From NCBI RefSeq assembly GCF_044647545.1, contig NZ_CP172818.1: 64,000 nucleotides of DNA; one strand, 5' to 3'. This DNA is from Escherichia coli (GTDB lineage Bacteria > Pseudomonadota > Gammaproteobacteria > Enterobacterales > Enterobacteriaceae). The position numbers were made by a program, and so were the translations under genes. Below are positions 46,767 through 48,152 of this stretch, in pieces. The stretch's first letter is position 1; each line of letters starts with the position of its first letter. The notes below the pieces were generated by a model. It was not told the DNA's origin. It ran no database searches and worked only from the letters and a program-made list of their open reading frames with translations.

Positions 46767-46785
46767 GCGAATTTTAGTTCACATA

Positions 46786-46811
46786 GACCCTGCTTCGGCG
46801 GGGTTTTTTTA
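46786..46811 (+). terminator. Rho-independent terminator of the narGHJI operon
   Basis: Hairpin CCCTGC-TTCG-GCGGGG followed by TTTTTTT, about 20 bp after the narI stop. Confidence 0.7.
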
Positions 46812-46947
46812 TGGGCACGGTGCGGGGTGAGTTGTCGGATGCGCTTCGCTTATCCGAACTTCAGGGGAGGATATTTTAGGTCCGGTAAACGCGGTGCCAT
46901 CGGGCAGAATTAGCTCGGAGTAACAGGTTTTGAGTATTTCAGGAAGT

Positions 46948-47032
46948 TGGTGGTGGGGGAAGGATTCGAACCTTCGAAGTCGATGACGGCAGATTTACAG
47001 TCTGCTCCCTTTGGCCGCTCGGGAACCCCACC
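46948..47032 (-). tRNA. tyrV: tRNA-Tyr (anticodon GUA), promoter-distal copy
   Basis: Exact reverse complement of the 85-nt tRNA-Tyr sequence as I recall it, including long variable arm and 3' CCA. Confidence 0.95.
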
Positions 47033-47065
47033 AGGGGTAATTCAAATTCTGAGGTAATGCTTGAA

Positions 47066-47150
47066 TGGTGGTGGGGGAAGGATTCGAACCTTCGAAGTCG
47101 ATGACGGCAGATTTACAGTCTGCTCCCTTTGGCCGCTCGGGAACCCCACC
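47066..47150 (-). tRNA. tyrT: tRNA-Tyr (anticodon GUA), promoter-proximal copy
   Basis: Identical 85-nt sequence, 33 bp from the first copy. Confidence 0.95.
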
Positions 47151-47192
47151 ACGGGGTAATGCTTTTTACTGGCCTGCTCCCTTATCGGGAAG

Positions 47193-47230
47193 CGGGGCGC
47201 ATCATATCAAATGACGCGCCGCTGTAAAGT
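47193..47230 (-). promoter_or_regulatory. tyrT promoter (minus strand: -35 TTTACA, 16-bp spacer, -10 TATGAT, GC-rich discriminator GCGCCCCGC)
   Basis: Minus strand reads TTTACAGCGGCGCGTCATTTGATATGATGCGCCCCGCTTCCCGATAAG, the classic stringently controlled tyrT promoter; hexamers at 47223-47228 and 47201-47206. Confidence 0.85.
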
Positions 47231-47309
47231 GTTACGTTGAGAAAAATGAACTGGTTGCGTAATTTTCACCCGTAACGGATTAAAGGTAACCAGTTATTTT
47301 TGCTGGCGA

Positions 47310-48152
47310 TTAAAGAATAATCGTCCGATTACCGTAAACAAAGACGCGCTGCGCCAGTACTTTGTAGAGTGCGCGACTTAAGACGTTTTTCTCGACGTCA
47401 CGACCTGCGCGCATCATATCTTCAGCTGTGTAGGTATGATCGACATGAATAACGTCCTGCATGATGATTGGACCTTCGTCCAGATTGTCATTCACATAGT
47501 GAGCGGTTGCGCCAATAATCTTCACGCCACGTTCATAGGCCTGGTGATAAGGACGTGCGCCGATAAACGCTGGCAGGAATGAATGGTGAATATTGATGAT
47601 CTTATTCGGGAAGCGTGCCACAAATTCTGGCGTTAATACCCGCATATACTTCGCCAGCACCACGTAGTCAGGCTGATAAGCATCAATGGCATCCGCCATC
47701 TTTTGATCGTGCTCGTTGCGACTTAATCCTTCATGACTTACCAGCTCAAACGGAATATCAAAACGCTCAACCAGAGAACGTAAAGTATCGTGGTTACCAA
47801 TAACTGCCGCGATTTCGACATCCAGGCCGCCGTAATTGGCTTTCATCAACAAATCGCCAAGGCAATGCGCCTCTTTAGTGACCAGAATCACTATCCGGCG
47901 ACGACCGGCAGGATTCAGCTCACGTACGGAGCCTTCTGGCAATGCGCTGTCGAGATCCGCCAGCAGGGTGGAATCATTAAAAATTCCTTCCAGTTCCGTG
48001 CGCATAAAAAAGCGCCCGGTACGGTGATCAACAAATTCATTGTTCTGCACGATATTTAACTCGTGCTTGTAGCAAATATTGGTAATACGTGCGATCAGAC
48101 CTTTTTGGTCCGGACAAATAGTACGCAGAACTTTACGTTGGAGTGAATGCAT
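47310..48152 (-). CDS. purU: Formyltetrahydrofolate deformylase
   Basis: 280-aa ORF with N-terminal ACT domain and formyltransferase domain; recognised as PurU. Confidence 0.95.
   Translation of the reverse strand: MHSLQRKVLRTICPDQKGLIARITNICYKHELNIVQNNEFVDHRTGRFFMRTELEGIFNDSTLLADLDSALPEGSVRELNPAGRRRIVILVTKEAHCLGDLLMKANYGGLDVEIAAVIGNHDTLRSLVERFDIPFELVSHEGLSRNEHDQKMADAIDAYQPDYVVLAKYMRVLTPEFVARFPNKIINIHHSFLPAFIGARPYHQAYERGVKIIGATAHYVNDNLDEGPIIMQDVIHVDHTYTAEDMMRAGRDVEKNVLSRALYKVLAQRVFVYGNRTIIL

Follow-up and report, generated by a model that had tools for sequence, protein, structure and literature searches.

The window analyzed here, a stretch of 64,000 nucleotides of Escherichia coli DNA (contig NZ_CP172818.1), contains exactly two tRNA genes, both of them tRNA-Tyr with the anticodon GTA and both on the minus strand (ARAGORN). 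They are situated between purU and narI and are co-oriented with purU, as judged from open reading frames and the annotations of matching genomes. The upstream neighbor (47310..48152, minus strand) is a 280-amino-acid open reading frame annotated in matching E. coli genomes as purU, formyltetrahydrofolate deformylase, and its stop codon lies 82 nt from the -35 hexamer of a sigma-70-type tyrT promoter (47201..47228, minus strand). This promoter, which the first-pass annotation had described as a textbook example, consists of a -35 element TTTACA, a 16-nt spacer, and an extended -10 element TG-TATGAT, and agrees with the consensus at 10 of 12 positions. Its activity is predicted here, and we take it to be that established for the tyrT promoter. 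A GC-rich discriminator, GCGCCCC, follows and, together with a 5′ leader of about 40 nt in the primary transcript, occupies 47151..47200 (minus strand). Alignment with a K-12-type locus (alignment A1) reveals base-for-base identity from the -35 hexamer through the discriminator and leader to the first tRNA.

The promoter-proximal gene, tyrT (47066..47150, minus strand), specifies an 85-nt tRNA-Tyr(GUA) with an encoded CCA and is followed by a spacer of 33 nt (47033..47065, minus strand; TTCAAGCATTACCTCAGAATTTGAATTACCCCT) and by tyrV (46948..47032, minus strand), a second tRNA-Tyr(GUA) identical to the first. Each gene scores 53.4 bits against the Rfam tRNA model RF00005 (gathering score 29), each matches its K-12-type counterpart at 85 of 85 positions, and both terminate in CCACCA. 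ARAGORN, Rfam, and an identity check thereby bear out the first-pass proposal of two identical 85-nt genes placed 33 nt apart. The short upstream flank that the two genes were said to share is equally real: the direct repeat formed by the tRNAs continues, with a single mismatch, into the 5 nt that precede each gene, and each 5′ flank has ATTACCCC(G)T at its end. The spacer corresponds to the final 34 nt of the 209-nt spacer of K-12 minus one C (alignments A1 and A2). To judge by its sequence, the window carries a standard, functional-looking tyrT-tyrV operon.

Downstream of tyrV, a trailer of 181 nt (46767..46947, minus strand) extends to the convergently transcribed narI (46089..46766, plus strand), a 225-amino-acid open reading frame annotated in matching genomes as the nitrate reductase gamma subunit. 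In other E. coli, the homolog of the trailer is the unique sequence found after the final RtT repeat unit (A1, A2). A weak resemblance to the beginning of the 178-bp unit is seen in the first ~50 nt of the trailer (46898-46943), with a local alignment score of 25 that is not significant by nhmmer. The trailer is rich in C and poor in G, its first 90 nt containing 29 C vs. 14 G, and holds a REP-like palindrome at 46834-46859. A structured element was sought by folding the trailer RNA and was not found, the fold being no better than that of shuffled sequence (z = -0.49). A terminator scan places the intrinsic terminator of narI, a hairpin (46785-46806) with a T-run, at 46785..46812 on the plus strand; in the orientation of tyrT, the same hairpin contains an A-C mismatch and has no U-tract, and the scan found no minus-strand terminator-like site in the trailer. 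The distance of roughly 180 bp that had been given between the distal tRNA and the narI terminator is correct if measured from the tyrV 3′ end (46948) to the narI stop codon (46766), which is 181 nt, but not if measured to the end of the terminator T-run, which is 135 nt.

In K-12, the tyrT operon comprises tyrT-tyrV-rttR-tpr, with a 178-bp unit repeated about 3.14 times. In the K-12-type genome used for comparison (L001), the interval reads, from purU to narI, tyrT, a 209-nt spacer with one diverged RtT unit, tyrV, and three further RtT units. These are the longer spacer and the distal 178-bp array that the first-pass annotation had tentatively ascribed to the reference locus, and its conclusion that the window represents a contracted variant is upheld by A1, in which the spacing differs and all four units are precisely removed from what is otherwise the same locus. 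The two operons share their position between purU and narI, their promoter, leader, and tRNA-Tyr genes, and the last 34 nt of the spacer, and their trailers are homologous. The 178-bp units were looked for in the window by three means, all of them negative: between 45500 and 48500 the Rfam RtT model (RF00391) has no match at E ≤ 1, the whole window is without a match to an nhmmer profile built from the units, and Tandem Repeats Finder reports no array, although it also misses the 118-nt two-copy tRNA repeat that a direct-repeat search reports. The same RF00391 model recovers all four units of the K-12-type locus. Unlike K-12, therefore, the window encodes neither RtT RNA nor the tpr open reading frame.

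The structure of the units suggests how they could be lost. Each RtT unit ends in a 19-21-nt copy of the tRNA 3′ end, AATCCTTCCCCCACCACCA(TC), and the deletion breakpoints in A1 are unit-exact and fall inside this shared AATCCTTCCCCCACCACCA direct repeat. Unequal crossing-over among units that are ~95% identical would alter copy number, and whole units would be cleanly removed if a tRNA 3′ end and a unit end were joined by short-homology recombination or by slippage during replication. One such event could drop the inter-tRNA unit, shortening the spacer from 209 to 34 nt, and others could eliminate the distal array. After tyrV, the junction expected from a simple exchange within the 19-mer is CCA-TC-ACTTCC; the lineage of the window has CCA-AT-ACTTCC, and the window itself has CCA-ACTTCC. 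The AT in place of TC may mean that the final event differed or that a later mutation followed.

How common is this arrangement? The locus was matched in 5,425 of 5,426 complete E. coli genomes. Ordinary coverage fails to separate the alleles, since pieces up to 500 nt apart are joined and coverage is 100% for K-12-type loci as well. The counts were instead made with E-value limits (1e-200, 1e-140, and 1e-170) strict enough that a structure passes only if it aligns in full and in a single piece. The form found in the window, with trailer, tyrV, spacer, tyrT, and promoter in one piece, occurs in 102 of the 5,426 genomes (1.9%), each of which yields a single HSP over all 481 nt at E ≤ 1e-200, a score of which any unit-bearing genome falls short. 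The tyrT-33/34 nt-tyrV arrangement behind the promoter, with any sequence after it, is the majority state (2,908/5,426, 53.6%), and the 209-nt spacer of K-12 is found in 1,920 (35.4%). At least one distal-type RtT unit is present in 4,700 genomes (87%), with 1 to 9 matching places per genome (median 2), leaving ~13% of complete genomes with no detectable unit of this type. The first-pass reading is refined accordingly: the short spacer of 33 or 34 nt is common in E. coli, and it is the total lack of distal units that is uncommon.

Individual alleles span a broad range of copy numbers: strain 4973 carries no RtT units, TW11681 one, the K-12-type genome four, and OZ121091 five behind a compact spacer. 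The compact-spacer alleles with distal units (TW11681, OZ121091, and E. coli W) share the core of tyrT, 34 nt, and tyrV with the window; they differ in the RtT units, from 1 to 5 or more, that separate tyrV from the trailer and that the window lacks. Natural alleles with a single tRNA gene also exist, one tRNA and the spacer (118-119 nt) being gone from L090 and from OkiPb01714 (L006), which has one RtT unit beside its sole tRNA-Tyr. Unequal crossing-over from doublet to singlet is known from the classical genetics of su3/tyrT. These single-gene alleles reflect the same kind of event, recombination between direct repeats, but the window retains both tRNAs and loses only RtT units. A different rearrangement is seen in ZH193 (L099 29611-36492; also L005), where tyrV, every RtT unit, and the trailer have given way to a seven-gene cluster that lies between narI and a lone tRNA-Tyr. 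The cluster encodes a KAS III-like enzyme, an epimerase, an MBL hydrolase, an F390-synthetase-like protein, a PAP2 phosphatase, and two desaturases, and alleles of this type may explain many of the ~600 genomes that are neither compact nor K-12-type.

Among known alleles, the rttR-less loci of strains 4973 and CE10 have the same architecture as the window, that of 4973 being identical except for 3 nt of indels; IAI39 is likened to the window by its published loss of rttR alone. The CE10 locus (L095) additionally has a 1-nt deletion in the GC-rich discriminator of the tyrT promoter, between the -10 element and the start site, reading GCG-CCCG vs. GCGCCCCG (A2). Strain 4973 is the closest complete genome, and over ~45 kb the window shows zero substitutions against it. 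What sets the two apart is four small deletions in the window: a single nucleotide at 39715 and at 47064, 2 nt at 46946, and 4 nt at 59018. Those at 46946 and 47064 lie directly 3′ of the two tRNA CCA ends, such that all relatives examined keep 1 nt behind the CCA of tyrT and 2 nt behind that of tyrV that are missing from the window, and one of the four lies 4 nt after the narK stop codon. The deletion at 47064 accounts for the spacer of 33 nt in the window vs. 34 nt in its relatives. Other close relatives compared carry the longer version of the three deletions that lie within the compared regions, and the four may be sequencing errors or private micro-deletions. Three contigs that encode the exact NarG of the window agree with it at 99.95-99.97% identity over 15.7 kb.

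The contracted alleles lie on at least two sequence backgrounds. Among the 102 genomes, identity is at least 99% in 77 and 95-99% in the remaining 25, and A2 resolves two trailer haplotypes, one shared by the window, 4973, and CE10, the other, of K-12 type, carried by S51, M10, and UR21. Both haplotypes also occur with RtT units attached, and the loss therefore took place at least twice within E. coli. The ~77 genomes of the main contracted haplotype come from humans, dogs, poultry, pigs, and wastewater.

Beyond E. coli, 80 purU loci from species-representative genomes were examined with ARAGORN and an iterated nhmmer profile of the unit, and 14 loci were checked with Rfam. Matches to RF00391 were found in E. 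albertii (2), a second Escherichia species, "E69" (2), Salmonella enterica arizonae (1), Citrobacter youngae (3), Klebsiella michiganensis (3), and Enterobacter cloacae (1). Although labeled "E. coli" by GTDB, E69 and SCPM-O-B-8794 are ~90% identical to the window and were treated as other Escherichia species. Among 59 complete two-tRNA species loci, 33 spacers are compact, 24 long, and 2 intermediate; at least one full RtT unit is present in 45 loci, and 12 have the layout of the window, that is, a compact spacer and no full distal unit, including those of Yokenella, Kluyvera cryocrescens, and L009, an Escherichia-like genome ~90% identical to the window. The RtT unit is thus old, its copy number drifts in both positions across Enterobacteriaceae, and its complete loss is recurrent. 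Such recurrence throughout the family agrees with a published analysis, in which rttR was found by parsimony to have been secondarily lost in IAI39 and E2348/69 (Skippington & Ragan, 2012; PMC3318445), and a similar exchange of RtT and tRNA has been described between strains of Erwinia pyrifoliae (PMC7542023). A tyrT-tyrV locus free of RtT is, in short, an already known and naturally recurring polymorphism.

Two further arrangements were encountered among these outgroup loci. In Citrobacter sp. MGH106 (L018, 5000-5324) it is the tRNA and not the RtT unit that has expanded, to three tandem tRNA-Tyr genes separated by 35-nt spacers. In several loci of Citrobacter, Kosakonia, Phytobacter, and Cedecea (L011, L013, L016, L030, L032, L037, L052, L066, and L086), the distance from purU to the first detected tRNA-Tyr is ~180 nt greater, and the usual position of the first tRNA is filled by an RtT-like fragment, which may be a unit or a decayed tRNA.

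Taken as a whole, the locus in the window is in all probability the chromosomal E. coli tyrT-tyrV operon in an allele from which all 178-bp RtT units have been lost, a recurrent copy-number state of a variable tandem-repeat locus. A first alternative concerns the cause of the loss and not its occurrence. Removal of RtT and tpr could have been adaptive, through modulation of the stringent response, the yield of tRNA-Tyr, or termination, for example, and not a neutral outcome of repeat instability. The recurrence of the loss at least twice in E. coli and also in other genera would fit such selection, as would the spread of the main contracted haplotype over ~77 genomes of varied human, animal, and wastewater origin. 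However, copy number ranges freely, as neutral slippage predicts (none to at least 5 units in alleles inspected individually, and as many as 9 matching places in a genome), and the literature still describes the function of RtT as unknown; selection is accordingly an unlikely explanation. We hold it equally doubtful, in its broader form, that the RtT array acts across Enterobacteriaceae as a fast copy-number switch, ranging from 0 to at least 5 units with the spacer unit present or absent, whose repeated complete loss could be selected via tRNA-Tyr output, termination, or an RtT-dependent modulation of the stringent response. Were it to prove true, the locus would constitute a natural dosage series for finding the function of RtT.

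A second alternative reverses the direction of change: the lineage would never have gained RtT units, and K-12-type loci would be later expansions. The occurrence of the compact, unit-free layout in 12 of the 59 species loci, including the Escherichia-like L009, speaks for this and leaves the direction of change across the whole family ambiguous. Closer to E. coli, by contrast, E. albertii and another Escherichia species have RtT units in both positions, as 87% of E. coli genomes have distal-type units. The contracted alleles of E. coli sit on two trailer haplotypes that are each common to unit-bearing genomes, the first part of the window's trailer gives a weak hint of a leftover unit start, and the parsimony analysis cited above inferred secondary loss of rttR. 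An ancestral absence of the units is, on this evidence, quite unlikely.

The last alternative, that the source strain does have the 178-bp repeats and that the assembler collapsed the array to nothing, would draw on the fact that near-identical tandem units are a classic target for collapse and on the hint of imperfect sequence quality given by four small deletions without substitutions relative to 4973, but it is very unlikely indeed, since the 102 independent complete genomes have exactly the architecture of the window, five further NCBI assemblies with an identical NarG share the short narI-purU interval (four in the two-tRNA and one in the single-tRNA form), and a collapse normally leaves at least one unit and not zero, while here two identical tRNA genes 34 nt apart were kept.

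With loss of the units from an ordinary tyrT-tyrV operon as the preferred reading, a model of expression can be proposed by analogy with K-12. The stringently controlled sigma-70 tyrT promoter would give rise to one transcript comprising the leader, a tRNA-Tyr, the 33-nt spacer, the second tRNA-Tyr, and the trailer. RNase P, which removes the 5′ leader of such transcripts (47151..47200 in the window), would cut both tRNA 5′ ends; RNase E would cut the A/U-rich spacer (AGAAUUUGAAUUA) and the trailer, and 3′ exonucleases would then trim to the encoded CCA. Neither RtT RNA nor a tpr peptide could be produced from this operon. Termination is the least certain step of the model, and its site is inferred only. 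The K-12 operon reportedly ends at a Rho-dependent site inside the repeats, an observation said to go back to Kupper in 1978 and Rossi in 1981, and those repeats are missing in the window. Termination here probably occurs either through Rho in the C-rich, G-poor trailer, the composition of which is compatible with Rho loading, or through collision with the convergent narI terminator region.

The import of these observations beyond correct annotation is small. The absence of rttR and tpr from a tyrT locus should be read as a natural polymorphism and not as a defect or a new element. The short spacer being the commonest form, the K-12 layout should not be taken as the norm of the species. That ~13% of complete genomes are without a detectable distal-type unit argues that RtT and tpr are dispensable, and RtT-free alleles offer natural knock-out material for the study of RtT function.

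Two other differences between the window and strain 4973 were recorded outside the operon. Between tdk and adhE, at 53963-54914, the window has a segment of 952 nt with IS4-like inverted ends (TAATGCCGATCAGTTAAG ... CTTAACTGACTGGCATTA), whereas 4973 carries a full 1.39-kb IS4 with its transposase at the same site; the shorter segment looks like an internally different or deleted IS4 derivative. Farther to the left, the match to 4973 ends at ~17293, just beyond ychF: there 4973 continues into an integrase-headed island with an AAA ATPase and a DEAD/DEAH helicase, whereas the window (1-17293) has different content with several long open reading frames.
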